Positions 4,843-48,708 of a stretch of 64,000 nucleotides of DNA are shown here, piece by piece. The stretch spans positions 28,184 to 92,183 of the IMG/VR virus record IMGVR_UViG_3300014205_000195, one strand, 5' to 3'. The position numbers and the translations under genes are program-made. Below the pieces are notes generated by a model that saw nothing but the letters and a program-made list of their open reading frames with translations, did no database searches and was not told the DNA's origin. The first letter of the stretch is position 1, and the number at the start of each line of letters is the position of its first letter. Origin of the DNA: a virus. Its lineage: Duplodnaviria > Heunggongvirae > Uroviricota > Caudoviricetes.

Positions 4843-5034
4843 TCACCGCCCCGCCAGGTACCTGTCCACGACGGCCATTATCTGATCGTGCGCGGACGAC
4901 GCCTTCCTGAGCATGGACATGTTGGGGTCACCGCTCGAATCGCTCGGTACCATCCTCATCAGGGCCGCGTCTATCTCGCTCACGAGCTCCTGCCGCGTCA
5001 TCACTCGGCCCTGGTCCCATATAGACCTGCTCAT
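4843..5034 (-). CDS. hypothetical small protein (63 aa)
   Basis: ORF track; stop overlaps start region of next gene. Confidence 0.35.
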   Translation of the reverse strand: MSRSIWDQGRVMTRQELVSEIDAALMRMVPSDSSGDPNMSMLRKASSAHDQIMAVVDRYLAGR

Positions 5035-7997
5035 GCCGGCCCCCCGCCCAGCGCGAAGTTGCGCGATTCGCCGGCCGAGACCAGCCTCACGCTGCCCATG
5101 GACACCGGCGTCGTCTCCACTGACGGCACGCCCCTCGCCTCCAGATCCATGCCTGGCTCGTCGTCCTCATACCGCAGCGTCATGTGCGGCGTGTACCCGT
5201 GCGTGTGATCCACCGGCACGCCGGCGGCCGTCAGGGCCCTCACCAGGTCCGCCCTGAACTCCGACAAGCCCGGGACGTCCATCAGCGCGACGATTGGGGC
5301 GCGTCCTGGGGCGTTGAACCGCCCGACGCCGCCCACCGTGCCGCTGAGCGGTCCCGCCGACGCGCATACGGCCTCCACCGCGCGGACGGCGGCCTCCATC
5401 AGCCCGGCGCCAGTCAGGTCCCGCTTAGCGTCGTCCGTGAGATACGCGATCGTGACGTGCAGCTCGTTCGGCGGCTCCCCGCCGTCCACCGCCAGCCTCG
5501 TCGCGAGCTCCCGGTCGGGGAACCACGCGATCATGGCGCCCGGGTCGGCGTCGGCCGATATCTCCCTGTCGTCGTATCTGCCCGGCAGGTTCTCCGGGCC
5601 GCCCTTGTCCTCGTCGTCGGGGCCCTGTATCGTCACGCCCTTGCTCTCGGTCGACCCGAGGAGGACCTCCGCCTGCCTGACGTCCTCGTACGTCCCGTCG
5701 GCGCCGGCGCGCTCGATTATCTCGTGCTCCGGCTCGTCGCCGAACTTGACGCACGCACCCAGCCTCAGACCGTCGACTATGGCCTCGGCGTCCTCGTGCA
5801 GCGCGTCCACCGCCGCGAGGATGATCGGGTCGAGCGCGTCGCGATCGCGGACGGCCCTCTCGAGCTCCGAGCGGACCATCTCCACGACGTCCGCCCCGAA
5901 GCCTGACTTGGACAGCTTCGAGCCGACGTCGATGCCCAGGTCGGCGGCTGCCGACAGGACGTCAGACGTCCACAGCGCAGCGTCTCGCTCGCGGAGCGGG
6001 CGCACGGTGGTCGCCTTCCTCAGCGCCAGACCGAGCTCGTTGAACAGGGCGCCGTCGCCGGCGGCTGACGCCGACCTCTGCAGCCCGGAGATGAGCTTGG
6101 TGGCGTTCACGTACCCGTGCTCGACGGGGAACCCCGTGCCGTCCACCCATATCAGCCAGTCGCCTCGGTCGGCCCTCGCCGGGCCGCCCATCCACGTCAG
6201 CGCCGGCGGAGGCGCACCCTTGTCGAGGGCGGCGAGCACGGCGAACGCCGGCATCCTCAGGCTCGGCTCCGCTATGTGGATGGCCTTGTCGACTACGTCA
6301 GTTATCGCGTTGAACAGGAACGGCGTCTGCGGCGTCGAGAGCTTCGGCGTCCTCACTGGCTCCGACAGGGCGGGCTCCTTCCTGTCGTCGCTGCCATCCA
6401 CTATCTCGTACGCCCTGCCGGCGAAAGCGTCCGCTGGCATGGACTTCTCCATGCGCTTCTCCGGCGTCGCGGGCTCGAGCTCGTCCTCCTCGCCGCCCTC
6501 CATGTCGCGGAGCTTGGTGTAGTACCTCGGGTCCTCCGCCAGGTGGTCGCGCACGATGTTCGCGATCGAGTCCATGTCGCCGCCCACCGTCTCGTAGTGC
6601 TCAGACGACTCGGCCTCAAGGCCCTCGTCGAACTCGTCGACGCCGTTCTCGAGTCGCGGCCCGCTGATGGCCTCCATGACTATGTCGAGCGTGGCGGCGA
6701 GCTCGTCCCTGACGCCGGGGTTGTCGCTCAGGTCGCTCGGGTCCCACCACGCGAGCGACTCCACCATGTCGCCCCCCGGGTCGTCTGGGTTGTCTGCGTG
6801 GTCGCGCGGTCCCGCTATCGGGACGTCTGCCTCAGACTCCACGGTGTACACGAACCCGGCGTAGACGCCGTCGGGGGTCACCCACCTACCGGTCAGCTTG
6901 CCCGGCGGCAGCGGACACCCAGTCTCCTCCGACCACTCCCGCCTGGCGGCCCACGGGAGGGACTCCGAATCGCCGTCCCTGTGGCCGCCCGGGAACTCCC
7001 ACTTGCCCGCGGCCGCGTCGTCCTCGTTGCCGATGAGCGCCCGCTGCAGCATGAGCACGCGGCCGCTGTCGGCGGCCCTCACGGCCAGCCCGGCGACCTG
7101 CGGGCCGTCTGCGACCTCCGCCGGCGCCGACGCGCGCCGACCGGCCGCGTCCCGCGCGTGCCCGCGCGGCCTGTGCGACTCGACGTCGCCACGGCCGCTG
7201 CGCCTATGGTGCGCCGTGGACCCGTGCTTGTCCTTGTGCTTGTCGAGGAACCCGGCCGGACCTGTAGCCGTCTGTCGCCACGTCTGTATGCCGCCTGGCG
7301 TCTTGGCCTGCCGCTTCGCGGCCTGCGACAGCGCCTTCATGGCCTGCCCAGGTGTCACCGGGCACACGCCGTCCAAGCAGAACGCCGACTGCGCGAACTC
7401 GCCTGCGACATCGAACGACTTCGAGATGATGGTGAACTTGGCGTCAGGGTTGACGGGCGTCTCACAGATTGTGATCTCGTACAGCACGACCTCGTCGATC
7501 ACCCAGAAGCAGGTGCCTCCCTGGCACTCGTGCCTCCTGGACTCGAACGGCGCGTCCGCGGAGATGGAGAAGCTGGCCATCTTTCCGGACATGATGTCCT
7601 CGATGACCTTGTCCACCACCGGCGGCCTGTACTTGTCGGTCCTGACCTTGACCACCGCGAACAGGCCTATGTCGTCGACCTTGGTCTCATACACCTGACC
7701 GGTGCGCGGGTCCTTCCAGCTGCGCAGCACCTCGCCAACCTGCACGTTGCTGTGCAGCAGATTGGCGTTGCGGTACTTCGGGTTGGCCATGAACCTCGGG
7801 AGGTCCCTCGCCAGCGCGCGCTTGGTGATGACGTGCTTCTCGCGGTCCACGACCTGCGGCGACGCGTAGCCGGCGACCACCACGTCCGGTATGTCGCCGT
7901 CTCCCTTGTGCAGCACGGTCAGCTGGCCGTAGCCGCTCAGCGGGTACTGCGGGACCGTGCCGGTGACTATCCTATCCCAGGCCCTCGAAGCTATCAT
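5031..7997 (-). CDS. Multidomain fusion: N-terminal HK97-type prohead protease-like domain, central Nudix hydrolase domain, C-terminal 2H phosphoesterase (LigT-like) domain
   Basis: N-terminus resembles the Caudovirus prohead protease family. Nudix box GKWEFPGGHRDGDSESLPWAARREWSEETG is present. The C-terminus has two H-x-T motifs (HVTIAYL and HMTLRY) of the 2H phosphoesterase fold. Confidence 0.75.
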   Translation of the reverse strand: MIASRAWDRIVTGTVPQYPLSGYGQLTVLHKGDGDIPDVVVAGYASPQVVDREKHVITKRALARDLPRFMANPKYRNANLLHSNVQVGEVLRSWKDPRTGQVYETKVDDIGLFAVVKVRTDKYRPPVVDKVIEDIMSGKMASFSISADAPFESRRHECQGGTCFWVIDEVVLYEITICETPVNPDAKFTIISKSFDVAGEFAQSAFCLDGVCPVTPGQAMKALSQAAKRQAKTPGGIQTWRQTATGPAGFLDKHKDKHGSTAHHRRSGRGDVESHRPRGHARDAAGRRASAPAEVADGPQVAGLAVRAADSGRVLMLQRALIGNEDDAAAGKWEFPGGHRDGDSESLPWAARREWSEETGCPLPPGKLTGRWVTPDGVYAGFVYTVESEADVPIAGPRDHADNPDDPGGDMVESLAWWDPSDLSDNPGVRDELAATLDIVMEAISGPRLENGVDEFDEGLEAESSEHYETVGGDMDSIANIVRDHLAEDPRYYTKLRDMEGGEEDELEPATPEKRMEKSMPADAFAGRAYEIVDGSDDRKEPALSEPVRTPKLSTPQTPFLFNAITDVVDKAIHIAEPSLRMPAFAVLAALDKGAPPPALTWMGGPARADRGDWLIWVDGTGFPVEHGYVNATKLISGLQRSASAAGDGALFNELGLALRKATTVRPLRERDAALWTSDVLSAAADLGIDVGSKLSKSGFGADVVEMVRSELERAVRDRDALDPIILAAVDALHEDAEAIVDGLRLGACVKFGDEPEHEIIERAGADGTYEDVRQAEVLLGSTESKGVTIQGPDDEDKGGPENLPGRYDDREISADADPGAMIAWFPDRELATRLAVDGGEPPNELHVTIAYLTDDAKRDLTGAGLMEAAVRAVEAVCASAGPLSGTVGGVGRFNAPGRAPIVALMDVPGLSEFRADLVRALTAAGVPVDHTHGYTPHMTLRYEDDEPGMDLEARGVPSVETTPVSMGSVRLVSAGESRNFALGGGPA

Positions 7998-22778: not shown

Positions 22779-22779
22779 C

Positions 22780-23603: not shown

Positions 23604-23620
23604 CGCGGCGATCGGCTCTT

Positions 23621-24125: not shown

Positions 24126-24128
24126 ACT

Positions 24129-24838: not shown

Positions 24839-24913
24839 TGGCACGGCCTGTAGGATTCGAACCCACATCGTCCGGGTTGGAGCCGGATGTCCTATCCGTT
24901 GAACGAAGTCCGC
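24839..24913 (-). tRNA. tRNA-Trp(CCA)
   Basis: anticodon loop CTCCAAC; AC stem TCCGG/CCGGA; T-loop TTCGAAT; CCA encoded; one acceptor mismatch. Confidence 0.65.
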
Positions 24914-24995: not shown

Positions 24996-25436
24996 TCAGG
25001 GGATTTTTTCGACGTACCCCGCGAACGTCCTGTTGAACAGGCAGTCCGGGCTCCGGCGCGCCCTGATGTACTCTACCAGCTCCGGCCCGCGCATCGGCGT
25101 CAGCCGAGCGAGGACCAGGGCGGTCACCAGGGATGAGCGGTTCAGCCCCGCTGCGCAGTGTACCAGGACGCGCGTCCCCGCCCTCACGGCAGCCGCCGTC
25201 CGGTCAGCCACGGCCGCGAGGGCCGCCTCGTCCGGGAGGACGTGGTCGTCGTCGAACTCCCACCTGACCTCAGTGAACGGCTGCAGGTCGCTGGGCACGT
25301 GCCTAATGGGGTCGTCGCCGCAGAGGTTCACGACGTAGCGTATCCCTCTGCGCCACACCTCCATCTCGTCGAACGGCGTGTCGAGCGAGCCGGACTGCCA
25401 CAGCTTGCCGGGGATGATCTCCGACAACATCACCAC
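24996..25436 (-). CDS. dual-specificity / tyrosine protein phosphatase
   Basis: Active-site signature VHCAAGLNRSS (HCxxGxxRS). Confidence 0.8.
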   Translation of the reverse strand: MVMLSEIIPGKLWQSGSLDTPFDEMEVWRRGIRYVVNLCGDDPIRHVPSDLQPFTEVRWEFDDDHVLPDEAALAAVADRTAAAVRAGTRVLVHCAAGLNRSSLVTALVLARLTPMRGPELVEYIRARRSPDCLFNRTFAGYVEKIP

Positions 25437-26647
25437 GCCGACTGCGAGTGGTCGATGCCGTCCTGCCTGCGGTCAGCCAGGAGGTCGACGTCGTCGTCGG
25501 GCACGCCTGCCCCTCCGAGGGGACGCGGCGTCGGGCCGCCGTCGTCGAACGGGAGCGGGCCGCCCAGGTCCGGCGCCTGCTTCCTGTCGCGATGGTAGTG
25601 GTGGCCGGTGCCGCCGCGGGCGTCGCGGTGCTTCTCCTCTGGTGCGCCCCAGCCGTCCTCGGCCGGCGCCCTCTGGTCGCGGAGCTTGCTGCGGAGCCGC
25701 ACGGGGTCGCCCTCGTACTTGACGGGATACTCCTGCCGCTCGCTCTTGGGCCTGAGACTCTGCCGCCTCGGGAACTGCTTCACGGCGGACCCGGCGTCCT
25801 CCTGGTGGTGATGCGCGGTCGAGCCGAACGAGTCTCTGTGCTTCTCCTCCATCGACTTCGCGATGGCCGACGAGGCGGCTATGACGTCGTCGACGTCACC
25901 CTCGCCGTAGGCGAGCGCGAGGCGGCTCGCCGTATCGATGGCCTTCGCCAGGAGCGGCCTGTGGTCGGAGAGGGCGCTCTTCGGCTTCACCGCGGCGCCG
26001 GCATCCTCCGGGTCGAGGAGCTCGTCCGGGGCCTCTATGCCGGGGTCGAGCGCGTCCTTCGGCTTCTCGACGACGGCCGTGTCCCCGTCCCGCGACACGA
26101 CGAAGTCCGCCTGCGACAGCGCTCTGATGATCCGTCTCGACAGCTTCTTGACGCCCGCCTCGTCGACCGCCTCGGCGTCGACGTGGTACGAGCTCCCGTC
26201 GTCGGTGACCACGTACCCGTCCGGCTGCGTCGGCGACGCCGGCGGTATGTCGGCCGCGGCGAGCGCCTCGCGGATCCTCGCCAGCGTGCTCTCACGCACG
26301 TCGTCTACGGCAGCGGTCTGGGCGGTGTCCGGCATCTCGTCCTGCGCCAGCCCTGGGTCGCCGGCCGACGGGTCGTCAGCCTGTCCGTCCCCAAGCCCGC
26401 GCGCCGCGACGTCGTCAGACACGGGCGGCCTGGTGCGGCCGTCCGCCACGTAGAAGCGCCCGCCACGCGGGCCCTCCTGAACGAATATGCCGGCCGGCGG
26501 CTTCTCGTTCTGCCTGAGGTATATGCGCTTGGCCGGCAGCTCCATCCGCCTGTCGGAGTCGGACTCCTTGACGGCGAACGGGTCGGCCGTCCTCATGGTC
26601 GTCCGTCTGCGCGCCGCCCTGCTCTGGTGCTTGCTATCCGGCATCAT
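25430..26647 (-). CDS. hypothetical acidic protein (405 aa) with RGGxFY and KHRD...G(S/T)(A/G)HH repeat motifs
   Basis: ORF track; motifs GPRGGRFYVADGR, EEKHRDSFGSTAHHHQ and EEKHRDARGGTGHHYH. Confidence 0.55.
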   Translation of the reverse strand: MMPDSKHQSRAARRRTTMRTADPFAVKESDSDRRMELPAKRIYLRQNEKPPAGIFVQEGPRGGRFYVADGRTRPPVSDDVAARGLGDGQADDPSAGDPGLAQDEMPDTAQTAAVDDVRESTLARIREALAAADIPPASPTQPDGYVVTDDGSSYHVDAEAVDEAGVKKLSRRIIRALSQADFVVSRDGDTAVVEKPKDALDPGIEAPDELLDPEDAGAAVKPKSALSDHRPLLAKAIDTASRLALAYGEGDVDDVIAASSAIAKSMEEKHRDSFGSTAHHHQEDAGSAVKQFPRRQSLRPKSERQEYPVKYEGDPVRLRSKLRDQRAPAEDGWGAPEEKHRDARGGTGHHYHRDRKQAPDLGGPLPFDDGGPTPRPLGGAGVPDDDVDLLADRRQDGIDHSQSAW

Positions 26648-26885
26648 CGCCTCCCGTGTCTATCATGCTGGCCCGTCGCCTCCACCGCGACCCCGCGCGG
26701 CATCCCGCTCACCCTGGCCACGACGTAGCCGTTGGTGAGCGCCACGGCCATGTCCGCCAGGCTCCGGCCTCGCCTCTTCCCGGCCACCAGCCTCGCCCAT
26801 TGGGGGTCGCCGGCGTACCGGCCGTCATCGTACACCGAACACGCCAGCTTAGGCTGCCCGTCCGTCATCTCATATATGTCCAACT

Positions 26886-27869
26886 TCACCGGAGGCCGCC
26901 GTGCAGCGACGCGAGGACGTCCAGCCTCGCGTCTATTATTGACGCCTTCTCTGACTCGCTCAGCTTCACCTTCCCGACGCCATCGGAGCCGTGCGTGTTC
27001 ACCACGCGGGCGAGCACCGGCGCGAGCTGGTGGCGCTTCGCGAGCACCTCGCCGCAGGCGGCCAACACGTTCCGACGGATGACGTCGTTCCCACGGTAGT
27101 CGTCCGCCTCGACGCTCTCCGGGCTGCCTATCCCGAGCTGCTGCTCGAGCCCCGGCCAGGAGTTTCCCTTCAGGAGCTCCCACACGGACTCCTCGTCCGT
27201 CGGGTCGTCCCACCGTCCGGCGTTGTCTATCGCCCACAGCCTGTCGTTCTCTGGGTCCACGATGAAGTTCGCGCCGTGCCTGTCCCAGTTGCCCAGCATC
27301 AGATCCATGACGACCATGCGGCTGTAGTCCCTGACCATCGCCTCGCTGATCTCGCCGTCGTACATCTGGGCCAGTCTCGCCTTGCCGCCGAACCCGGCGT
27401 CGTCCACCCACCGCAGCGCCATGCCGTCGAACCGTTTCTCCTCCGTCAGCTGGTAGACGCCGGGATGGAGCCCCCACCCCATGATCTCGTCCAGCTGTTG
27501 CCACTGCAGCTCGCCAGCCCTGTCCACCTTGCTGGCCTTGATGAGCATCCTGCTGTCGGATAGGCCGGGGACAGGATCGAACGTCCCAGGCTTAGCGTAC
27601 GCGGTGGCGCACTTCCCGCGGTTCAGCGTGCCCTGCTGATCGGCGCACGTCCACGTGTCGTCAACCTTGACGATGTGACCGAAACCCATCCGACCGCCGC
27701 GAGCCAACGAACGGCCGGAGGCGGCTGGCTGCTGCTCTGCCGGCCTGCCTGCCGAGTCGGCGTCGTAGTAGAGCCCACCGCGCTCGCCCTGACGGACGGT
27801 CGCGCCAGGCGGCGCCGAGCCGGGCCTCCCGGTGACGTAGACTCGTCCCTTCTCGTAGATCTGGGTCAC
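26886..27869 (-). CDS. PI3/PI4-kinase-like atypical protein kinase (327 aa) with N-terminal RGGLYYDAD motif
   Basis: Catalytic-loop-like LGNWDRHGANFIV and metal-binding-like LWAIDNAG (DRHxxN / IDxG). Confidence 0.6.
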   Translation of the reverse strand: MTQIYEKGRVYVTGRPGSAPPGATVRQGERGGLYYDADSAGRPAEQQPAASGRSLARGGRMGFGHIVKVDDTWTCADQQGTLNRGKCATAYAKPGTFDPVPGLSDSRMLIKASKVDRAGELQWQQLDEIMGWGLHPGVYQLTEEKRFDGMALRWVDDAGFGGKARLAQMYDGEISEAMVRDYSRMVVMDLMLGNWDRHGANFIVDPENDRLWAIDNAGRWDDPTDEESVWELLKGNSWPGLEQQLGIGSPESVEADDYRGNDVIRRNVLAACGEVLAKRHQLAPVLARVVNTHGSDGVGKVKLSESEKASIIDARLDVLASLHGGLR

Positions 27870-28072
27870 CGTCGCCGCTGCCTCTCCGCCTCGAAATCTA
27901 TCACATCATGCGCCCGACGGTGGCGGTTCTCAAACCTACCTATCGTCCAACCAGCGAAGGCGCACGCGACGAACCCTGCCGCGAAGGCGGTTCGTGACCC
28001 CAACGGAGCGGCCAGGATGAAGCCGACCACGAGGGTCGCAGTCCCGATGACCGGCGCCAGCTTGTTGCCCAT
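27866..28072 (-). CDS. small membrane protein (68 aa)
   Basis: Two hydrophobic segments; TATAAT 6 nt upstream of the ATG suggests a leaderless transcript. Confidence 0.45.
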   Translation of the reverse strand: MGNKLAPVIGTATLVVGFILAAPLGSRTAFAAGFVACAFAGWTIGRFENRHRRAHDVIDFEAERQRRR

Positions 28073-28075
28073 GCT

Positions 28076-28100
28076 GTAATTATAACGTATCTAACGCCGC
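28076..28100 (-). promoter_or_regulatory. candidate leaderless promoter: -10 TATAAT ending 6 nt before ATG 28072, preceded by GTTAGATA motif
   Basis: minus-strand reading GGCGTTAGATACGTTATAATTACAGC-ATG. Confidence 0.3.
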
Positions 28101-28273
28101 TCGCGAGCCCGCCTGGCGACGGCGCCCACGACGTCCTCGTTCACGCCGCCGTTCCCGACCCTCACTCCGACGGACAGCCTGACGAACCATAGCCCGAACA
28201 CGACGGCGCCGGGCATGGTGACCATGCCGAGCACCCTCCCGGCGAAATCCGGCCTGAAGAGCCTACGCCTCAC
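28091..28273 (-). CDS. small hydrophobic protein (60 aa)
   Basis: ORF track; one TM-like segment. Confidence 0.3.
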   Translation of the reverse strand: MRRRLFRPDFAGRVLGMVTMPGAVVFGLWFVRLSVGVRVGNGGVNEDVVGAVARRARERR

Positions 28274-28285
28274 GTCCCCCTCCGA

Positions 28286-28714
28286 TCAGGCGACGAGCGC
28301 CGCCGCCACGGCCACCGCGATGCCGACGTGGAGCGCCTGGTCGATCTTGTAACTGATGAGACCGCCTATCCGGCAGACGTCGATGGCGAAGTGGGTGACA
28401 CCGATCGCCGCACCGGCCAGCAGCGGGTCGTAGGAGCCGGCGCCCATGAGGCTGGCCGCGATGGCTGCGCACCCGCCGTGCATGAAGGCGTGGGCCGTCA
28501 GCAGCCACCCGGCATCGAACGGTCCGAACCCCCACGTCAGCACCTTGGGGCGCTTCGGCCACACGGCCGTCATGCCATCCGACAGTTCGGCGTCATTGAG
28601 CCTCACGTACGCCTTGAGCTTGCCCTTCGTGTTCGACATGTAATCGCCCTGGAGCGGGTAGTCGGCCAGGAAGTGGGCGAACACCATGGCCAGCGCGCAA
28701 CTGATAATGTGCAA
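28286..28714 (-). CDS. integral membrane protein (142 aa)
   Basis: Several hydrophobic helices; FLADYPLQGDY motif. Confidence 0.5.
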   Translation of the reverse strand: MHIISCALAMVFAHFLADYPLQGDYMSNTKGKLKAYVRLNDAELSDGMTAVWPKRPKVLTWGFGPFDAGWLLTAHAFMHGGCAAIAASLMGAGSYDPLLAGAAIGVTHFAIDVCRIGGLISYKIDQALHVGIAVAVAAALVA

Positions 28715-28717
28715 GGA

Positions 28718-30127
28718 TCACCCCTGGAGGTAGATCGGGTAGACGGACTCTACCTTGTGCTTCTCTGACACGACGTACACGGTCTGCACCGGCCGGGACG
28801 ACCTCCCGTACGCCTTAGTGTACCAGAGCGACCCGCCGTCTGCCGTCCCGTTCTGGATGACGACGACGCCGCTGACGTCCATCATGAGGAACGAGTGCCG
28901 GTGCGCCGTCAGGAAGACGTCAGGCCTGCAGCCGAAGATGTCCGACAGGACCCAGCTCGGGAGGAGCTGCTCTAGCTTCGCGACCGGCCCGTTCCACTGG
29001 TCGCCGTGGATGGCCACGTTCCTGTGCCCGAGCACGTCGAACCTCGCCCACCACTCGTCCTCGATCTCCCACCGCACGTTCGGCTGGAGCGCAGCCTTGT
29101 CCTTGGCCCACTCTGCCACGAGCGTATCGAAGTTGTCCTCAGGGTCGCTGAAGTCGTTCTTCCCGTTCGGCCGGCCGTGGTTGCCGGGGACGGACACGAC
29201 GACGACCTCAGGGGCCACCTCCGCCATCTTCAGGGCGAGGGTCGCCTCCAGGTGGGCCGCCAGCTGTATCTGACGGATGAGCCTGTGCGTGTTGCCGGAC
29301 CTGTCGAGGCCGGTGACGTTCTGGCCTCCGTAGATGAAGCAGCCCTCTATCATGTCGCCGTCGTAGACCACCCATATGCGCTCAACCGGGTGCCCAGACG
29401 CCCGCAGGTGCTCGACTATGGCGGTGACCGCCTCGATTATCCTGGGGAACCTGTGCTCCACGAACTCGCGGACGCCTATACCGTTCTCCAGCTTCCCTAT
29501 CTGCCAGTCTGAGCAGAACAGGACTACCTCGCGCGGCTTCCCGCCGCGGCCGCCGGCGCCGTCAGGCTCGCGCACCCTCGGTATGCGCACGGACGGGTTC
29601 GCCTTGCTGATGGACGCCAGCTCGTACTTGAGGAAATCGCGGAGCGACGTCAGCTGCTGGACCCGCCGCTGGAGTGTGTTCTTCTGCCCGAACGCGCGTG
29701 CGACCATCTCCGGCCCTGACGCGTTGGGCCACATGGAGCCCTCCTCGCGAAGGATCTCCTCCTTGGTCCACAGGTCCTCTGACCGCCTGCAGTCAGCGTG
29801 ATGGTACCAGTGATTGTCGTTCACCGGGGTGAACCGTTCGATGCAGAACTTGTTCATGCACCGCCGCTTCACCGGCGGTACGGAGTCCTCCAGGTCGTCC
29901 AGTGCCTCGTACGAGGAGACTACGTCCAGCTCAGCCGTCCGCCTCACGTGTATGCCGTAATTCCTCCGCAGCAGGTCGTACACGCACTGCTGAGAAGCCA
30001 CGACGCCGAACTCGTCGGCGACCGCCTTGGACAGCGCCGCCGCCGACTTCGTCCCGCCTGCCGCCGACACCAGGAACTCCCTGATGTCAGACTTCAGGTC
30101 CTGGTCACAATCGCGGTATGGTGTCAC
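28718..30127 (-). CDS. calcineurin-like metallophosphoesterase with N-terminal Cys/His zinc-finger-like region (469 aa)
   Basis: Metallophosphatase motifs (…DWQIGK…, VYDGDMIEG, …PGNHGRP…). Confidence 0.7.
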   Translation of the reverse strand: MTPYRDCDQDLKSDIREFLVSAAGGTKSAAALSKAVADEFGVVASQQCVYDLLRRNYGIHVRRTAELDVVSSYEALDDLEDSVPPVKRRCMNKFCIERFTPVNDNHWYHHADCRRSEDLWTKEEILREEGSMWPNASGPEMVARAFGQKNTLQRRVQQLTSLRDFLKYELASISKANPSVRIPRVREPDGAGGRGGKPREVVLFCSDWQIGKLENGIGVREFVEHRFPRIIEAVTAIVEHLRASGHPVERIWVVYDGDMIEGCFIYGGQNVTGLDRSGNTHRLIRQIQLAAHLEATLALKMAEVAPEVVVVSVPGNHGRPNGKNDFSDPEDNFDTLVAEWAKDKAALQPNVRWEIEDEWWARFDVLGHRNVAIHGDQWNGPVAKLEQLLPSWVLSDIFGCRPDVFLTAHRHSFLMMDVSGVVVIQNGTADGGSLWYTKAYGRSSRPVQTVYVVSEKHKVESVYPIYLQG

Positions 30128-30132
30128 CGCGG

Positions 30133-30420
30133 CTACGCCAGCTTCGACGTAAGGTCTATGACCTCCTGGACGGCCTTCGAGAGCGTCTTCGTGCCGAGGG
30201 ACTTCCTGGCCGCGCTCTCGACGTCGGAGACGCTCATCCCGCCGTCGCCAGATTCCGTGCGGGAGTTGGGTCCTCCCGTCACCTTGTCGCCTGAGTCCAG
30301 CACGCCGTCTGTGTCGGTCTTGGCGTCCTCTATCGGGTCGTCCGTCGGCTCTATCGCCTTCTGAGCGACGCTCGAGAAGGTCATGGCGCTTGACAGCTGC
30401 CTGGTCATATTCGGCTTCAC
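30133..30420 (-). CDS. hypothetical protein (95 aa)
   Basis: ORF track. Confidence 0.4.
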   Translation of the reverse strand: MKPNMTRQLSSAMTFSSVAQKAIEPTDDPIEDAKTDTDGVLDSGDKVTGGPNSRTESGDGGMSVSDVESAARKSLGTKTLSKAVQEVIDLTSKLA

Positions 30421-30478
30421 CTCGACGCTTATTGTCTCCCCGTCCAGCCGACGGCGAAACCTGGCCGAGCCGCCGTCG

Positions 30479-30919
30479 CTATGCCACGTCGCCAGCCTGG
30501 CCGCTGTTGAACGTCTTCAGCGACTCCCGCATCTCCGGCCCGCACTCTGTGTCTGCGTCCGCCGTCGGCGTCTCATCGTGCATCGCCTTCCATGCCCTGA
30601 ACGACTTCATCAGGATGTTCTTCCCTATAGGAAGGCCGGACGTGTCCTTGGCCGCCTGGGGGACGACGTAGTCCACGAGCATGAGGAAGTGCGCCGTCAT
30701 CGGCAGCGCCACGTCCGAGAACCCGTCATCGGCGCAGTTCACGATGGCCTCGGCGATGAGCCTATTGAACTCCAGGCTGGTGGCCGGATGCTGCCACCGA
30801 CTCTGGTCCTGGCTCTCGTGACGCACGACGCCCTGGAGGAGCCACAGCTCGTCCAGCGTGAAGATGACGGGGACAACCTTGCCGGCCACCATGGGAGCCT
30901 CCACCGGTCCAATTACCAT
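30479..30919 (-). CDS. hypothetical protein (146 aa)
   Basis: ORF track; protein-like. Confidence 0.45.
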   Translation of the reverse strand: MVIGPVEAPMVAGKVVPVIFTLDELWLLQGVVRHESQDQSRWQHPATSLEFNRLIAEAIVNCADDGFSDVALPMTAHFLMLVDYVVPQAAKDTSGLPIGKNILMKSFRAWKAMHDETPTADADTECGPEMRESLKTFNSGQAGDVA

Positions 30920-30983
30920 TGTGGGGGCTTCTGCGTGGTTGCAGGGCCCCCATGCTGCGGTGAATGTACCGGCTACAGTCCGA

Positions 30984-33176
30984 TCAGCCGCACTTTGAGT
31001 ACGTGCAGTTCGGGCATATGGCGCACCCCTCGGCCCGCCTCAGGCTGGACCCGCACGACGGGCACACGTCGCCGTTCCTGGCGAACTCCCTGACGTTATC
31101 GTACTGGACCGACGCCGCGGTGCTGCCGCCGAAGTGCTGGTTGGCCTTCCGACCGACGTAATCGACGAGGCTCGTGGCGAACGGTATCTGCCGGTTGCCA
31201 GTCGGCCCGGCCGGCTCGAACGATATCCCGGTCCACTTGTCGGCGAGGTCGAAAATCGGGCAGCCCCACTGGAGGGCGAACGACGTGACCATGCTGAAGG
31301 CGTCGGCCAACCCGTTCACCGTCGAGCCCTGCTTGCTGATGTTCAGGAACATCTCGCCTGGCGTCCCATCATCATACAGGCCGAACGTGAGGTAGCCCTC
31401 GACCCCGTCGATGTTGAACTTGTGCGTAAACGCCTGCCTGTCGTCGGGCAGCCTGCGCCTCGACTGCCTCGGCTGGTCGACCACGACCTGCTCGATGACC
31501 TCATCGTCGGCCTGCGAGGCCGCCGTGTAGAGCGCCTGCTCGCTGCGACTACCGTCCCGGTACACGGAAAGCGACTTGAGGTTGTGCTTGTAGGCCAGCC
31601 TGTAGAGGCGGTCCACGTCGTCCCGCGTCGCACTGTTCGGCAGATTCGCCGTCTTCGAGATGCTCGAGTCGTTCGACGCCTGAGCGGCGGCCTGCATGAG
31701 GACGTGCTCCTCCGGCGTCACGTCCATGGACGTGACGAGGTGGGCCGGCCTGGTCTCGACGGCGTCGTACTCGTCAGACCAGTCGGACTTGACCCAGTAC
31801 TCGCCGATCCTGTCCTTGCGAAAGTACTTGAAGTCGAAGTACGGCTCTATGCCGGAGTTGACACCGGCCATCAAGGCGATGGTCCCTGTCGGCGCCTGGG
31901 TCAGCAGGTAGCAGTTGCGGATGCCGTGCTGCCGTATGGCCGCCCGGACGTCTGACGGCAGCCTCTTGATGAACGGGCGCTTCAGGTACTCGTCGGCGAC
32001 GTACTCGGGGAACGGCCCACGCTCAGCGGCGAGCGCGGCGCTCGCCCTGTAGGCGGAGTCACGGAGCGACCGGCACACACGCTCGGTGAACTCGATGGCC
32101 TCAGGCGACCCGTAGCGCAGCCTCATGTCGAGGAGGGCGTCCGCCAGTCCCATGACGCCTATGCCCATGCGGCGGATGCGCCTCTGGCTGTCGCGGCACT
32201 CCTCCAGCGGGTAGCTCGACAGGTCGATGACGTTGTCCTGGAACCTAACGGCGACCGGCACCCACCTCTCGAACTCGTCGAAGTCGAAGTGGGCCGCGCC
32301 GTCGCCGTCCCTGCGGACGAACGCCCTGAGGTTGAAGCTGCCGAGCAGGCAGGCGCCGTACGGGCCGAGCGGCTGCTCGCCGCACGGGTTGGTCGAGATG
32401 AGCTCCTCGAAGTAGCCGGAGTTGGCCTCCTTGTTGGCCCTCTCCATGAAGTAGATGCCAGGCTCCGCCGACCTCCACGCCGCGTCGATGATCTCGTCCC
32501 ATATCTGCCGCGCCTTCACGGTCCTGTACACGCGGCCGCCCCACTTCAGGTCCCAGTCGCCGTTCACCTCGACGGCGGCCATGAACGCGTCGCTGATGCA
32601 CACGCTCATGTTGCATCCCTCGAGCCGGCCCGGCTTCTCCTTCGCGTGGATGAACTCGAAGATGTCCGGGTGGTCGTCGTTCATCATGATCATCGCGGCG
32701 CCGCGGCGGCTGCCGCCCTGTATCACGATGTCGTGCGACACGTACGCGAACAGCTGCGCCCACGTCACCGGACCGGAGCTCGTGCCGTTCACGCCGTGGA
32801 CGCGGTCGCCGGACGGCCTGAGCGACGATATGTTCACGCCGACGCCGCCGCCCTTCGACTGTATCTCGACCCACTCCATCAGCGACTTGCCGACTATGCC
32901 GGCACGGCTGTCCTCCGGACACGGTATGACGTAGCAGTTCTGGGCGGTCTCGCCTGAGTCGGTGCCGATGGCCCGCATGATCCTACCGCCGGGTACGAAC
33001 TTGAACCCCTCCAGGAGCCCGAAGTACTCCTGGACCCTCGCCGGGTCGTCGCCGTCCAGCGTCGCGACCGCCTTGGCAAGCCTCATCCACGCCTGGTGCG
33101 GGTACTGCTCGCCGTCGTGTGAGTACCGGTCCCTGAACGTGACGAGCGAAATCTCCGAATAGTCTGCCTCGGCCAC
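30984..33176 (-). CDS. nrdJ: class II (adenosylcobalamin-dependent) ribonucleotide reductase
   Basis: 730 aa; signature TNPCGEQPLGPYGACLLGSFNL and the overall motif set of NrdJ. Confidence 0.9.
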   Translation of the reverse strand: MAEADYSEISLVTFRDRYSHDGEQYPHQAWMRLAKAVATLDGDDPARVQEYFGLLEGFKFVPGGRIMRAIGTDSGETAQNCYVIPCPEDSRAGIVGKSLMEWVEIQSKGGGVGVNISSLRPSGDRVHGVNGTSSGPVTWAQLFAYVSHDIVIQGGSRRGAAMIMMNDDHPDIFEFIHAKEKPGRLEGCNMSVCISDAFMAAVEVNGDWDLKWGGRVYRTVKARQIWDEIIDAAWRSAEPGIYFMERANKEANSGYFEELISTNPCGEQPLGPYGACLLGSFNLRAFVRRDGDGAAHFDFDEFERWVPVAVRFQDNVIDLSSYPLEECRDSQRRIRRMGIGVMGLADALLDMRLRYGSPEAIEFTERVCRSLRDSAYRASAALAAERGPFPEYVADEYLKRPFIKRLPSDVRAAIRQHGIRNCYLLTQAPTGTIALMAGVNSGIEPYFDFKYFRKDRIGEYWVKSDWSDEYDAVETRPAHLVTSMDVTPEEHVLMQAAAQASNDSSISKTANLPNSATRDDVDRLYRLAYKHNLKSLSVYRDGSRSEQALYTAASQADDEVIEQVVVDQPRQSRRRLPDDRQAFTHKFNIDGVEGYLTFGLYDDGTPGEMFLNISKQGSTVNGLADAFSMVTSFALQWGCPIFDLADKWTGISFEPAGPTGNRQIPFATSLVDYVGRKANQHFGGSTAASVQYDNVREFARNGDVCPSCGSSLRRAEGCAICPNCTYSKCG

Positions 33177-33260
33177 CTGGCCCCCTTTTCACTATGCAAA
33201 AGATGGGTATGGGCCAGACAGACGGTCTGGCCCGATGGAGAAAATCGCTGTGGCTGCGCG

Positions 33261-34511
33261 CTACAAGTAGCGCGGATCGTGCTTCGGGCCGTACTTGGGG
33301 CGCCCGAGCACGTCGCGTTCCGGACCCCGCTCGTCATCGAGCTCCTGCTCCCTGTCCTTCACCCGCTGATCGCCCGCCGCTATCATGAGGTTCCAGGCCT
33401 TGTTGCCCTCCGGCGAGAGACCGCCACCCGGGACGTCCTCCCGGTCGCCGTGACCGAACATCGCCTGGAAGGCGGGGTAGAACATGTCCACCATGTCGTC
33501 CTCTGAGAAGTCGTCGGCCCCGCCGTGCTCGCTCTCCCACACGCCGTTCGCCCACACGTCAGCCATCTCGTTTATAGCGGGATGCTTCTTGGCCCAGCGG
33601 TTCGCGGTCCAGCCGTTCATGCTGTTTTTTCCGTCGTCCGGCTCCGGCGCCTCGAGGTCGCCGTCCCACCCCTGCCGCTGCCTGCCCTGCGTGCCGTACC
33701 CGGTCTCCGATGGGCCGTCGTCGTAGAAGAGGCCGCCACGCGGGCCCTGCCTCAGCTCCGCGCCCTCCGGGGCGTCGCCGCGGCCGTGCACGTACACCTT
33801 GTCCTTCTCGAGGCCGCCCTTGCCGACCCCCTCGCCGAACGTGGGATCGGTCATCGAGCCGTCGGTGCCGTAGTCGTACGGGTCGTCGTCCGGGTAGTTC
33901 GGCTCGCCGTGGCCCTTCGATATGTCCCCGGTGGCCATGATGGCGGCGTCCACCGCCTTGGACAGCGTCCCCGCCGGCCGTCGTGACGGACGGTGCTTCT
34001 GCCCGATGGCGAACCCGTCGCCGTCGCGGTCCCACTCGCCCATGCTCCCGAGGACGCGCCTGGCCTCGCCCTCTCTGGCAGCGTTTATCTCGGACAGGCG
34101 GCCACGTATGTCCCTGACCCTGCCGAGCTCAGCCGGCGTGCACTCGCCGCGTCGCGCCTTGTCGTAGAGGTCCTTGTACTCGTCGACGAGCTTGTCCTCC
34201 TCGCCGTGAAGCGGGTCTGCGCTGCCCTTACGGTGGCGCATGGCCACCGGGTGCTCGTCCGGGTGCCCGAAGTGCCGGTGCGTCAACGCGTGGCCGGCCT
34301 CCACCACCTCGATCGGGTCCTGCGTGTACGTGGCCTCGATGTCCGGCCTCGGCGCCGGGCCCTGGCCGCCCATGGCGCCGGCCATGTGCTTCACGACGAC
34401 GGAGTCGCCCACGCGTATGTACCTCTTGGTCACGTCACAGCTCCTGCGGGTCAACGGGCACGAGCCCCAAGCGTCCAGGCGCCGGCGGGTCTGCCCTGAG
34501 CGCCCACTCAA
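33261..34511 (-). CDS. hypothetical protein (416 aa) with RGGLFYDD motif (paralogous motif family)
   Basis: ORF track; GPRGGLFYDDGPSETGYG; Asp/Gly-rich. Confidence 0.55.
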   Translation of the reverse strand: MSGRSGQTRRRLDAWGSCPLTRRSCDVTKRYIRVGDSVVVKHMAGAMGGQGPAPRPDIEATYTQDPIEVVEAGHALTHRHFGHPDEHPVAMRHRKGSADPLHGEEDKLVDEYKDLYDKARRGECTPAELGRVRDIRGRLSEINAAREGEARRVLGSMGEWDRDGDGFAIGQKHRPSRRPAGTLSKAVDAAIMATGDISKGHGEPNYPDDDPYDYGTDGSMTDPTFGEGVGKGGLEKDKVYVHGRGDAPEGAELRQGPRGGLFYDDGPSETGYGTQGRQRQGWDGDLEAPEPDDGKNSMNGWTANRWAKKHPAINEMADVWANGVWESEHGGADDFSEDDMVDMFYPAFQAMFGHGDREDVPGGGLSPEGNKAWNLMIAAGDQRVKDREQELDDERGPERDVLGRPKYGPKHDPRYL

Positions 34512-46076: not shown

Positions 46077-46694
46077 TTAGATGCCCCGCACGTACTTCAA
46101 ATCATGCCGCCACCGGCCCACGTCCGTCAACGCGTCGTGGATGGCTGCCATGTCCTCCGTGATCTGCACAAACCGGCTGAGCGCCTGCATGATGCCCTCT
46201 ATCACAGTGGGCGTGTAGTCAGGGTCGTCCACCAGGAGCGCCCTGTACGCCGGGCGGAGCGCCTGTCGGAGGGTTATCCTCTCCGCGCCGACGGTGTTGT
46301 CTATGGCGGCCACGCGACCGTCCGCGGTCACCAGCCAGTTGTTGGAGTGCCTGTCGCTGTTGCCGACAACGTAGTCCATGACGACCATGTTGGCGATGTC
46401 CAGGATCGCCCGTTCAGACGACCTGACCGCCATGTATAGGTCCGGGCCGAGCTCGTCGGCGGTCCTGCCATCGACGAACATCTGGGCGGATCTGTGCTCG
46501 TCGTACTGGACGGTCAGCGGGACTATCCCGTCGAACACGGCTGCCGCGACCGCGTACGCCGCCACCTCGTCGTGCCCGTCCCGAAGAACCCACCTGTTGC
46601 CGAGCACGTCCGTCGCTATCCTGATGCCCGACAGCCCAGGCCTCACCTCCCCGGCGTTCGGCTCCCTGACTGACACGAACCACCCGTTATCCAC
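46077..46694 (-). CDS. PI3/PI4-kinase-like atypical protein kinase (205 aa), paralogue of 26886..27869
   Basis: VGNSDRHSNNWLV ... AAIDN motifs. Confidence 0.55.
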   Translation of the reverse strand: MDNGWFVSVREPNAGEVRPGLSGIRIATDVLGNRWVLRDGHDEVAAYAVAAAVFDGIVPLTVQYDEHRSAQMFVDGRTADELGPDLYMAVRSSERAILDIANMVVMDYVVGNSDRHSNNWLVTADGRVAAIDNTVGAERITLRQALRPAYRALLVDDPDYTPTVIEGIMQALSRFVQITEDMAAIHDALTDVGRWRHDLKYVRGI

Positions 46695-48708
46695 GGTACT
46701 TCCCGCGGCTCGGCGTCCTCCCGGCTGGGATGACGGCCTTCACGATCGGCGATGCCGGCGGGGCTGGCGTTTGACCCGGCGGCGGCTGTATGGAACCGTC
46801 GTTCCCAACCACCCCAACCACCTGGTTCTGAGCTGACGCGGCCGGCTGTCCAGCGGTCGGCGCCCCGGCCGCTGGCGCACCAGCCGCGGCCGCCGGGGCG
46901 GCGCCTCCAGCGCCGAACGGGCTGGCGCCCTGCATCTGCGCCTTCTGCTGGTCCTCCATGGACAGGACACGCCCGTTGAACGTGAACTCCTCGTCCTCTG
47001 AGTTGTACTCCACGCCGAACCCCATGCCGGCCATCGTCTGCGCAACGGCCGCCTTGGTCTGCAGTATCTGGAGCTCCACGAGCTCGTTCGACTCCTCGGG
47101 CGTCTTTATCCTGAGGTACCAGTCCTCGATACCAAGCGCCTTCTGCAGCTTCGGGAAGACGTCCGTGTGGTAGTTCCGCTGGGCGCCCTCCACGACGCGG
47201 CTCATGACCGTCAGCTGCTGGCTCTCGCTGTTCAGCCCGCCGATGCCCTCCGTGGACTGCATCCATATCTGCGACACGCCGTACATGCCGGCTATGCGCT
47301 CGCGGATCTCGTCCCTGACCGGGAGGTAGTCGAGCTCGTCGAGCGAGTAGGCGAAGCGGACGAACTCCATCTTCCCCATGCCAGTCTTGGACGATATCGC
47401 TATCCACGGAACGAAGTGCGGGTCCTGGGCCATCTTGGCCTCGACCTCCAGCTTCGCCGCGTTGAAGGACGGCACGTCGTCGGTGGTGACCGTCACGACG
47501 CCCTGCGGGACCTTCCTCTCGTAGAAGTAGTCGTACAGGTACCGGTCCATGCCTATGAGGGTCATGGCCTTCTCGTAGATGCTCAGGACCGGCGGGTACC
47601 CGTACGTCTCCGTCGGGCTGTACCGCGACCAGTGGATGACCTCATCGTCGAGCAGGTACATCGTCTGGGGGCGGCCGGCGCCGTACATCATCGTCTGCTG
47701 CTCGATGTACTTGTAGTAGACCGGGTACGTCCTGATGCCGCACTTCGGGCACACGCCGCGCCACTCGACGTCCCAGTCCTCGCCGCCGGGCACGTCGAGT
47801 ATGTCCTCGCGATGGAACACGCACACGTGGTGCGCCAGGCCGGGGACGCCTCGGTCGTCCATGTCCATCTCGACGAGCGTCGGGTCCAGCCTGAATATCT
47901 GGACGACGAGGGCGTCTGGCTTCAGGTCCGTGATGAGCGGGTCCTGGCGCGCCTCCTCCATCTCGTAGTCGGCCATCTCGTACACCTTCCTGAGGAAGAT
48001 GAACCCGTCGTCGACCGTGTTTATGTCGTCCTCGCACGCCCGCAGCAACGACTCGAACGACTGGCCGAAGTAGTTGCACCTGTCCAGCAGGTTATCGAAC
48101 TCCTTTAGCTCAGAGGCATCAGGGCGCCTCATCCTGTGACCGAGGGCGCGCGCCTCCGGGTCCTCGGGGACCTTCGGTATCTCCGGGTCCCAGCCCTCGA
48201 CCTCGCAGAAGCACACGAACTTCAGCTTCTTGGCCTGCTTCTCCGTGTACTCCTCTTCGCAGTGGTCGCACTTGAACTCGAAGGCCGGCTCCCACTCCAG
48301 GCCGCGCCTGAACACCTCGTTGCGGAGGTGGACGGTGGCCGTCCTGACGTCGGCGCTGTTCTGGACTATCTGGTAGAGGTCCAGCAGCCTGCGCCGCTCT
48401 GCGGCGAACTGCCTCCTGCCCTTCACGCCGTAGTCGTTTATGCCTATGGCGTCGTTCACCGTCCTGGCGCGGTTCAGGGTCGAGGCCAGGCCGCCGAACG
48501 CACGCCTGTCCTCTGACTTGTCCATGAAGTCCTGTACCGTCTGCGCGTGGAGCGCCAGCTCGCCGCCCTGCGACTTCATGGTGCTCAGGAAGGAGTCGAA
48601 CTCGGCGCGCTGCTTCGTCACGGAGCGCGCCGGCCTCAGGGCGTCGGAGTTGGTGCCCGTCGCCACCGCCGGATCGCGTCGCCTGAGAACGAAGTCAGCG
48701 ATTCCCAT
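46687..48708 (-). CDS. portal-like protein (673 aa) with low-complexity Ala/Gly/Pro-rich C-terminus
   Basis: Size, Cys4 cluster, and position just downstream (in transcription order) of the terminase large subunit. Confidence 0.5.
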   Translation of the reverse strand: MGIADFVLRRRDPAVATGTNSDALRPARSVTKQRAEFDSFLSTMKSQGGELALHAQTVQDFMDKSEDRRAFGGLASTLNRARTVNDAIGINDYGVKGRRQFAAERRRLLDLYQIVQNSADVRTATVHLRNEVFRRGLEWEPAFEFKCDHCEEEYTEKQAKKLKFVCFCEVEGWDPEIPKVPEDPEARALGHRMRRPDASELKEFDNLLDRCNYFGQSFESLLRACEDDINTVDDGFIFLRKVYEMADYEMEEARQDPLITDLKPDALVVQIFRLDPTLVEMDMDDRGVPGLAHHVCVFHREDILDVPGGEDWDVEWRGVCPKCGIRTYPVYYKYIEQQTMMYGAGRPQTMYLLDDEVIHWSRYSPTETYGYPPVLSIYEKAMTLIGMDRYLYDYFYERKVPQGVVTVTTDDVPSFNAAKLEVEAKMAQDPHFVPWIAISSKTGMGKMEFVRFAYSLDELDYLPVRDEIRERIAGMYGVSQIWMQSTEGIGGLNSESQQLTVMSRVVEGAQRNYHTDVFPKLQKALGIEDWYLRIKTPEESNELVELQILQTKAAVAQTMAGMGFGVEYNSEDEEFTFNGRVLSMEDQQKAQMQGASPFGAGGAAPAAAAGAPAAGAPTAGQPAASAQNQVVGVVGNDGSIQPPPGQTPAPPASPIVKAVIPAGRTPSRGKYRG

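Follow-up and report, generated by a model that had tools for sequence, protein, structure and literature searches.

Why should proteins with nothing else in common, encoded by one tailed-virus genome, carry the same short sequence? The question is raised by a 64,000-nucleotide stretch of DNA (the window; positions 28,184 to 92,183 of the IMG/VR record IMGVR_UViG_3300014205_000195, Caudoviricetes), in which three open reading frames (ORFs), here termed p1, p2 and p3, share an RGG-x-F/Y-Y motif, and in which p1 shares a second, KHRD-type motif with a fusion protein that includes a prohead protease. A preliminary description of the DNA ascribed the motifs to a paralogous family in several large acidic proteins, with a common interaction partner. 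The available evidence is that the first motif is the core of a genuine, widespread and conserved module (module A), for which a fold can be predicted and which is found in fusions with portals, prohead proteases and enzymes of the effector type. The second (motif B) is a separate and lineage-restricted element, not a variant of module A. It is tentatively proposed below that module A serves as a portable tag, giving an address or docking function to proteins that are located inside the capsid and probably injected.

Results

A module shared by three otherwise unrelated proteins

A six-frame search of the window with the regular expression G.RGG.[FY]Y gives exactly three matches, all in minus-strand ORFs, at 26450-26473 (p1), 27765-27788 (p2) and 33723-33746 (p3); 200 second-order Markov simulations of the window give none. 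When 895 six-frame segments were searched with a hidden Markov model (HMM) built from eight p3 homologues from outside the window, the same three proteins were recovered, p1 with E 2.2e-13, p2 with 4.9e-7 and p3 with 1e-6, the next best segment having E 0.11. The common stretch extends over approximately 31 residues, far beyond the eight first quoted. The initial observation of a near-identical RGG motif in three ORFs is thus borne out by the regular expression, the simulations and the independent HMM. By contrast, the term 'paralogous family' is a misnomer, since the proteins are otherwise unrelated and have only the module in common, and they are not unusually acidic (isoelectric points 5.3-5.4, compared with a proteome median of 5.8). 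The three copies are rather divergent, e.g. with 34% identity between those of p1 and p3. An all-against-all blastp comparison of the 83 window proteins gave no further common short module; what it did give was a further kinase paralogue and two exonucleases paralogous to each other.

All three carriers in the window are single-domain 'solo' proteins, rather than polyvalent ones. No Pfam or PHROG family was matched by p1, and in 5.8 billion clusters it has no homologue but itself; proteins P0101 and P0128 are similar to its N-terminal part, in which module A lies. The match of p2 to the Pfam family PI3_PI4_kinase has E 5.8e-6 and 26.8 bits (cut-off 27.1), and its homologue P0068, which scores 61.8 bits with the same family, has two kinase domains, each preceded by a module A (layout A-kinase-A-kinase). 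The true start of p3 is probably the GTG at 34433, since the database protein P0001 begins MTKRY. One family in PHROGs, phrog_24083, which has no assigned function, matches the module in p2 and p3. Conservation extends to homologues of all three proteins, including the p1 relatives, the kinase relative P0068 and 8 of the 10 p3 homologues, where the motif is retained as YLxPGExPPxGAxVQQGPRGGxF.

Conservation and predicted fold of module A

The consensus of module A, LEKA[RK][VI]Y[LIV]xPGEx[AP]PxGxxVQxGPRGGx[YF]Y[ED], has the RGG-x-F/Y-Y motif as its core and is followed by a linker rich in Gly, Glu, Ser and Pro. In a logo of 232 copies, conservation along the consensus is K 71%, [RK] 89%, Y 94%, P 99%, G 85%, V 66%, the G of GPRGG 100%, the R after it 57% (with Lys in 15%), GG 100%, [YF] 99%, Y 94% and [ED] after YY 76%. 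From 104 aligned copies, AlphaFold2 predicts a beta meander of three strands (9-12, 24-26 and 32-35) with a predicted local distance difference test score (pLDDT) of 88-89 in the core. The same beta unit appears in a model of full-length p3, between two stretches with pLDDT <50. The models thus suggest that module A is a folded unit set between flexible or disordered linkers.

When 1.84 billion representative proteins were searched with a profile built from 11 copies, 657 matched at E<=1e-3 and 98 at E<=1e-10. No Pfam family covers the module in the 78 carriers that were compared with Pfam, and literature searches on GPRGG, on capsid-targeting motifs and on the virion proteins of the haloarchaeal virus HVTV-1 returned no description of it. 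With no Pfam family, a PHROG family without function and nothing in the searchable literature, module A appears to be undescribed.

The net charge of the module averages +0.5, ranges from -8 to +8 and tracks the proteome, being -3.25 in very acidic proteins. Identity is higher between copies in a single protein (60%) than between those from different proteins (47%), a difference that is larger in the variable columns (44% versus 26%).

Carriers and attached domains

Among the 141 top matches, 95 contain between two and five copies, set a median of 271 residues apart, i.e. roughly one copy per enzyme domain; in 29 of the 46 single-copy proteins, module A lies within the first 80 residues. The attached enzymes include kinases, ADP-ribosyltransferases (ARTs), Zeta toxins, topoisomerase IB, nucleotidyltransferases and GNATs. 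By Pfam, the 78 carriers include Topoisom_I (9), ADPrib_exo_Tox (5), DUF5661 (4), PolyA_pol (3), PI3_PI4_kinase (3), DRAT (2) and S-adenosylmethionine lyase (2), together with Zeta_toxin, anthrax-LF-like protease, HD, GNAT and ParB_N domains; by PHROG, two match 'Alt-like RNA polymerase ADP-ribosyltransferase'. The arrangement can be elaborate, as in P0021 (A-HEAT-GNAT-A-A-HEAT-DRAT), and one large carrier family combines unrelated C-termini with a constant first part, made up of a 32-residue leader, module A and a Gly linker. The repertoire resembles that of virion-delivered effectors, Alt-like ARTs, Zeta toxins, 2H and Nudix enzymes being of the kind known to be packaged (PMC5512222).

Carriers are encoded by haloarchaeal viruses, by bacterial-type phages of both high and low GC content and by a contig assigned through binning to a DPANN archaeon. 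The DPANN case is a 7.7-kb contig (L022, positions 3-6972) binned with a Pacearchaeota metagenome-assembled genome (MAG), in which five consecutive genes each start with module A, their cargo including DRAT-like ARTs and a Zeta toxin-glutaredoxin protein, among others.

Fusion to portals and prohead proteases

The portal protein of the window (Table 1) does not itself contain module A; five of its homologues found by phmmer (P0098, P0083, P0062, P0150 and P0061) have the module in C-terminal extensions. In close homologues of the 988-residue protease fusion of the window (P0035, P0127 and P0129), module A is located behind the S78 protease domain, e.g. in P0035 the protease domain spans residues 9-202 and module A residues 226-260, some 25 residues after the catalytic domain, with a second copy at 747-786. 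By Pfam, the head families among the 78 carriers are Peptidase_S78 (four, plus two) and Phage_portal (two). The PHROG counts are four and three for head maturation proteases, three, two and two for portals, and one for head morphogenesis, those for the proteases and portals referring to different PHROG families that possibly match the same proteins. Portal C-termini and prohead proteases are located inside the procapsid, so in these fusions module A would be inside the head.

The 988-residue protein of the window also has a weak Acb1-like match (E 0.025) and may be a head protease with a nucleotide-signal-degrading cargo. A decayed module A (AAKRQAKTPGGIQTWRQTATGPAGF, positions 7242-7322), just before motif B in this protein, was seen by eye and was not significant by HMM; it is at the same position as the intact module A of the homologue P0035.

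Among approximately 50,700 phage genomes, the only cultured carriers are the haloarchaeal siphoviruses HVTV-1/HVTV-2, HCTV-5 and HCTV-1. HVTV-1 gp115 (1313 residues) has module A at its N-terminus, followed by a Zeta kinase and a C-terminal ART; the adjoining gp116 (153 residues) has two copies of module A at its C-terminus. Both genes sit between the MuF-like 'head assembly' gene product gp114 and the prohead protease gp119 and major capsid protein gp120.

Motif B

The second claim of the preliminary description, that KHRD-type repeats are common to p1 and the protease-Nudix fusion, also held, there being two copies in p1 and one in the fusion (Table 1). Motif B is an almost invariant linear motif, h-x-K-H-[KR]-D-K-x-G-S-T-A-H-H, with the core KH[KR]DKxGSTAHH. 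In the protease fusion it occupies residues 252-265, approximately 50 residues after the end of the S78 match at 196, where the homologue P0035 has module A. It was not found in other module A carriers and has no match in IMG/VR. In a scan of metagenomes, about two-thirds of 67 pattern matches were spurious, arising from the antisense strand of a conserved gene (KHDDDAGETGHH) or from a NAD-ligase (KHRDRLGVTAHH). Adding the three copies of the window and those of P0010 and P0011 to the 21 genuine instances gives 26 instances from 21 sources, in which positions left free in the search pattern are still conserved (Lys/Arg 96% at position 3, Ser 96%).

The motif is kept in protease fusions from metagenomes that are homologous to that of the window (L115, E 7e-72, and L092), is beside a DUF5661 domain in L095, and is encoded by several ORFs per contig in four cases (three in L095; two each in L118, L135 and L151). 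In L115 and L136, motif B and module A are on the same contig. Both p3 homologues without module A (P0010 and P0011) have motif B instead, and the P0010 gene directly follows that of a ClpP-type head maturation protease. The motif B proteins have hardly any matches in Pfam or PHROGs, the exceptions being DUF5661, an intein and an HNH domain. A relationship to the HKD motif of the PLD type was rejected, the spacing being wrong for such a motif.

The distribution of motif B seems to follow the same logic as that of module A, i.e. a protease fusion plus several proteins per genome, within one lineage. Since it is found in positions of the types that module A occupies, one of which immediately follows the protease domain, motif B probably serves the same head-internal logistics.

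Relationship to PBCV_basic_adap

Module A resembles the chlorovirus-named PBCV_basic_adap domain (PF08789) in its core, V-x-x-G-P-R-G-G-x-Y-Y, in being a tiny, often repeated beta unit, and in being fused to protein kinases. The two differ in the order of their elements: module A has a [KR]-h-Y-h-x-P-G-E-x-[AP]-P-x-G strand and loop before GPRGG-YY, whereas PF08789 has a G-N-K-x-Y-L strand after it. They differ also in that module A is not basic and in that its hosts are tailed viruses of bacteria and archaea, not chloroviruses or Bacteroidota chromosomes. All three window copies have the GPRGG-x-YY strand; the G-x-K-x-Y-[LV] strand is absent after it, and an equivalent [KR]-h-Y-h strand is present before it. 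In P0014, P0015 and tandem arrays (L025), the [KR]xYLKPGE strand is found either after or before the GPRGG-YY strand. A search of the 5.8-billion-cluster index with a 46-column module alignment, in which 442 candidates were scored, returned only proteins of 38-70 residues, and it was these peptides that exposed the circular-permutation pattern. The difference in order thus looks as if a repeat had undergone a register shift or been circularly permuted.

When 185,579 species genomes were scanned with a DNA pattern, 75 stretches were found, all from Bacteroidota (one labelled only 'uncultured bacterium') apart from the archaeal-MAG contig L022. The Bacteroidota stretches encode chromosomal proteins of approximately 200 residues that end in KGPNGExVxTGPRGGKYYINKNGNKTYL, a unit of the PBCV_basic_adap type; they occur in Spirosoma, Fibrella, Larkinella, Pedobacter and others (L010-L084). 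The chlorovirus-named domain is thus common in Cytophagales and Sphingobacteriales. The Bacteroidales protein L025 scores 26.3 bits with PF08789 (gathering score 20.4), and P0016, L015 and L029 are sub-threshold at 13.6-15.5 bits. The PF08789 HMM has no match to p1, p2 or p3 at E<=1, nor to the short module proteins P0012-P0015 at E<=10. The Bacteroidota units match only the second half of module A. A hhalign comparison of the module A alignment (A5) with that of the PBCV-type units (A6) gives a probability of 96.8% and E 2.1e-10 over 27 columns, a score that is inflated because the A6 set, in which only one source protein passes the Pfam threshold, was picked with a pattern derived from module A. 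As the window copies give no PF08789 match and the hhalign score is inflated, module A is not counted as a member of the family, and is probably a distant relative or rearranged version of it.

The second half of the module profile alone also matches P0024, a eukaryote-like protein of 3223 residues with 34 tandem units containing GPRGGYF[YF], the C-terminus of which, read by eye, is UDP-glucose-pyrophosphorylase-like.

Genomic context

The window has a GC content of 66%, and nearly all of its genes are on the minus strand. When the entire region and each of p1, p2 and p3 were used as queries, at the DNA and protein levels, the cultured phage genomes yielded no protein match; the sole DNA matches were short ribonucleotide reductase ones for the region.

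Table 1. Positions of the module A and motif B copies, the proteins that carry them and associated genes, numbered from the first letter of the window
Feature	Positions	Strand	Description
988-residue polyvalent protein	5031..7997	-	By Pfam and PHROGs: S78 prohead protease, motif B, NUDIX, DUF5661, 2H phosphoesterase (2_5_RNA_ligase2)
Motif B copy in protease fusion	7206..7247	-	LDKHKDKHGSTAHH
Dual-specificity phosphatase	24996..25436	-	Pfam DSPc, E 1e-9; directly downstream of p1 (7-nt overlap); context only
p1 (405 residues)	25430..26647	-	Orphan: N-terminal leader, module A, acidic linker, two motif B copies
Motif B copy 2 in p1	25598..25639	-	EEKHRDARGGTGHH
Motif B copy 1 in p1	25808..25849	-	EEKHRDSFGSTAHH
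Module A copy in p1	26447..26539	-	LPAKRIYLRQNEKPPAGIFVQEGPRGGRFYV
p2 (327 residues)	26886..27869	-	PI3/PI4-kinase-like protein kinase; module A at extreme N-terminus
Module A copy in p2	27762..27857	-	YEKGRVYVTGRPGSAPPGATVRQGERGGLYYD
p3	33261..34511	-	His-rich helical N-domain, disordered linker, module A, second linker, helical C-domain
Module A copy in p3	33720..33812	-	LEKDKVYVHGRGDAPEGAELRQGPRGGLFYD; residues 234-264 of p3, internal
Portal protein	46687..48708	-	phrog_18178, E 5e-54

The kinase p2, the motif B protein p1 and the dual-specificity phosphatase are encoded by consecutive genes in 24996-27869. This arrangement suggests a kinase/substrate/phosphatase unit; motif B has a conserved Ser-Thr pair. 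Right after the portal gene, a 205-residue protein (46077-46694) has the kinase catalytic loop GNxDRHxxN...IDN in common with p2 (blastp E 1.6e-6), and the two match the same PHROG region, phrog_37179.

The window has 39 tRNA genes (8624-24913), each of them minus-strand and together serving nearly every amino acid; interspersed with small ORFs, they separate the prohead-protease fusion from the kinase/p1/phosphatase genes. The window also encodes an RNA-repair and translation-related set of genes, including an Rnl1-type RNA ligase (43580-44737), PNKP (41974-42879), a Ro60/TROVE-like protein (13280-14794), an RF-1-domain protein (12345-13241), NAMPT (38829-40259) and an SPFH/Band7 protein (40300-41286). 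The exonuclease paralogues are Rv2179c-like (37186-37782 and 10911-11486; blastp E 1.4e-11). Inteins are present in relatives of the phage, one in the homologue in L001/L002 (15944-18526) of the window exonuclease-like gene 28718-30127 and one inside the prohead-protease fusion of L092 (716-4618); both window genes are intein-free. The start of the window (1-2814, minus strand) lies inside a gene that is downstream of a Gp80-like gene and encodes a 1464-residue protein containing a lytic transglycosylase domain (SLT_3), as seen via L007 (11961-16355). This protein, which has neither module A nor motif B, may be an ejected cell-wall-degrading protein.

Discussion

A possible tag for capsid-internal proteins

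How, then, might a small folded module come to be shared by a kinase, a His-rich helical protein and an orphan? Our preferred reading, to which we give a probability a little short of even, takes module A to be a portable tag that provides an address or docking function for proteins inside the capsid, which are probably injected. In such a scheme, tagged proteins would bind a head-assembly component of their own virus (candidates are scaffold or capsid interior, portal, protease and further tag copies). They would thereby be enclosed in the procapsid, where they would stay, possibly after trimming by the prohead protease, until delivered into the host with the DNA. In the window, the cargo would be the PI3/4-kinase-like p2, the His-rich helical p3 and the orphan p1, with the sheet of each tag held by the invariant Tyr, Pro and Gly residues. 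Since the charge of the module follows the proteome and copies within one protein are more alike, the partner is probably a virus-specific protein, rather than DNA or a universal host target.

That the motif-bearing proteins have a common, plausibly capsid-linked partner had been suggested from the window sequence at the outset. The suggestion is supported in part, and gains from the presence of module A on portal extensions, after prohead proteases, on effectors of the packaged type and in the head-gene cluster of HVTV-1; packaging and ejection of the carriers are what we infer from these associations. For several of the attached effector domains, packaging had itself been deduced from fusion to MuF or portal proteins (Iyer et al. 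2017, PMC5512222). Chlorovirus PBCV-1 offers a precedent of another kind, in that its kinases A278L and A282L bear the basic adaptor, are packaged at approximately 400-530 copies per virion and are recovered with virion DNA (PMC3281028).

Several observations weigh against the tag proposal. The portal and protease of the window both lack module A, and p1, p2 and p3 are encoded among nucleotide-metabolism, RNA-repair and tRNA genes, not beside capsid genes. A Foldseek search of the Protein Data Bank with the module model gave no significant fold match (best E 5.7), and a sequence-profile search gave no match there. The PBCV-1 proteins are DNA-associated and belong to a virus of a different realm, and the argument for motif B is one of distribution alone. 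The top-150 list from which copy numbers and spacings were taken is skewed to multi-copy proteins, because scores sum over copies. Free-standing modules without cargo, i.e. P0012 (46 residues), P0162 (45 residues), HVTV-1 gp116, P0112 and P0113, fit poorly with a pure cargo label.

Other explanations

The spacing of roughly one module per domain (median 271 residues) resembles polyprotein punctuation, and the prohead (S78) protease may recognise or cleave A, B or both, packaging occurring by other means. Such cassettes would cut polyvalent proteins into domains, free the protease from its cargo and trim portal extensions. The position of both elements just downstream of protease domains in the protease fusions is consistent with this, as is the short, almost invariant and protease-site-like character of motif B. 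The acidic residue that follows YY in 76% of module A copies is reminiscent of the head proteases of T4 and phiKZ, which cleave after Glu. However, a folded module of approximately 31 residues is much larger than known head-protease sites, its invariant residues are structural (Gly, Pro and Tyr) with no P1/P1' pair, and modules that are stand-alone or at the extreme C-terminus (HVTV-1 gp116, P0025 and P0088) would give no useful product on cleavage. The protease families also differ among the viruses concerned (S78, S78_2 and, in L008, a ClpP-type enzyme), and we regard processing as rather unlikely to be the explanation. Processing and targeting may nonetheless coexist, as in T4, the capsid-targeting sequence (CTS) of which combines the two (PMC7411985). 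A direct interaction with packaged DNA (or RNA), by which tagged proteins would ride the genome into the capsid and the host, has been proposed for the basic adaptor proteins of chloroviruses and is suggested here by the hhalign alignment of the second half of module A with PBCV_basic_adap-type units and by the recovery of the PBCV-1 kinases with virion DNA; the conserved Arg/Lys and the two aromatic residues could touch nucleic acid. Against it, the net charge of the module is not conserved, the Arg of GPRGG is far from invariant and a single structured RGG is not an RGG box, and DNA binding by the PBCV-1 proteins was never mapped to the adaptor domain itself. This reading is unlikely.

A variant of head-internal localisation, with another partner, is that modules pair with each other by beta-sheet formation, so building an internal body anchored on the portal and protease copies, with small multi-module proteins as cross-linkers. 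The cargo-less proteins of one to three modules named above would find a role here, copies within one protein are homogenised and modules occur on both structural anchors and cargo; yet AlphaFold2 gives a self-contained monomeric sheet and the window copies are divergent, making homotypic pairing distinctly unlikely. The preliminary description had also raised a shared host target. Many of the attached domains, including ARTs, kinases, GNAT and Zeta toxin, do modify host macromolecules, and the window genes lie among early- or metabolic-type genes, as might be expected if the module docked enzymes on a conserved component of the infected cell with no link to the virion. The target would, however, need to be universal, given that carriers span haloarchaeal viruses, the DPANN-binned contig and phages with bacterial-type RecA/DnaB; the module surface differs by lineage, and fusion to portal C-termini and prohead proteases is hard to account for. 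It is because of this diversity of hosts, and of the fusion to head-assembly proteins, that a host target is disfavoured and considered very unlikely. The idea that the similarity reflects chance or low complexity, Gly, Arg and Pro codons being common in a genome of this GC content, has a negligible probability, refuted as it is by the simulations, the E-values of the independent HMM (1e-6 to 2e-13) and the 657 database clusters.

Wider implications

If module A does mark capsid-loaded proteins, it would provide a sequence rule for spotting virion-delivered effectors, most of which are unannotated, in the genomes of metagenomic phages and archaeal viruses. At least 657 protein clusters would become candidates, and the effectors within reach would include anti-defence enzymes, host-takeover kinases and ADP-ribosyltransferases. 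Polyvalent and effector proteins could then be anchored in the head without a MuF domain, a small transplantable handle would be at hand for loading foreign proteins into capsids, and a poorly understood chlorovirus domain would gain a link to function. HVTV-1 and HCTV-1 are cultured, so the tag idea is directly testable. A more far-reaching proposal makes module A a general, portable code for encapsidation in tailed viruses of bacteria and archaea, its carriers being head-loaded and injected; given an evolutionary link to the chlorovirus adaptor, related tags would then load virion cargo in viruses of every domain of life. Motif B would, on this view, be either a second code, private to the lineage, that the machinery for module A also reads, or a phospho-switch of the adjacent kinase and phosphatase. 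This extended version is doubtful.

Comparison with known systems

One parallel is with polyvalent proteins, which have the same effector repertoire (ART, Zeta kinase, 2H, NUDIX, GNAT, ParB and nucleotidyltransferases), occur in multi-domain and solo forms, include portal fusions and are encoded among head genes; the paper that describes them does not use the word 'adaptor' (PMC5512222). With Peptidase_S78, NUDIX, DUF5661 and 2_5_RNA_ligase2 domains in one protein, and a portal and large terminase also encoded in the window, the 988-residue protein is a typical polyvalent protein, the presence of which in the virion can be inferred from the portal and protease fusions. The difference is that the anchor provided by module A would be a repeated 31-residue tag, not a MuF domain; a head morphogenesis PHROG, MuF-like by assumption, has one match in the 78 carriers. 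None of the LPD families of Pfam, which reportedly derive from the work of Iyer and colleagues, matched the module in these carriers.

The CTS of T4, borne by IPI-III and Alt, is likewise a short element common to unrelated proteins, which it directs into the prohead, and Alt-like ARTs are among the cargo of module A (PMC7411985). By contrast with module A, the CTS is a propeptide at the N-terminus, 10-20 residues in length; it binds the scaffolding core, and gp21 removes it. Module A folds, is 31 residues long and can be N-terminal, internal, C-terminal or repeated, and there is no sequence similarity between the two. Assignment of module A as a T4-type CTS was rejected, the module being internal in p3 and repeated or C-terminal in many carriers.

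The position of module A in P0035, and of motif B in the window protein, after the catalytic domain of the protease recalls capsid-targeting regions of prohead proteases themselves. The gp4 protease of HK97 reportedly has such a region at its C-terminus (Duda, Oh and Hendrix, in 2013), and a C-terminal capsid-targeting region is also present in the prohead protease gp245 of SPN3US (PMC7411985). There is no sequence similarity to either; in the carriers the putative targeting element is followed by hundreds of residues of cargo, and so would not be a terminal tail.

The tripeptide RGG in module A invites comparison with the eukaryotic RGG/RG box. This was rejected, in that module A has one RGG in a predicted beta turn (pLDDT 88-89), with Arg in 57% of copies, whereas the box is a disordered, multi-repeat array. 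The cargo-loading peptides of encapsulins are conserved short tags on unrelated enzymes that bind the interior of an HK97-fold shell. They differ from module A in being C-terminal linear peptides of approximately 10 residues with no fold of their own, are not similar to it in sequence and belong to a different system. Module A would belong to a known kind of element, the shared tag on virion-associated proteins.

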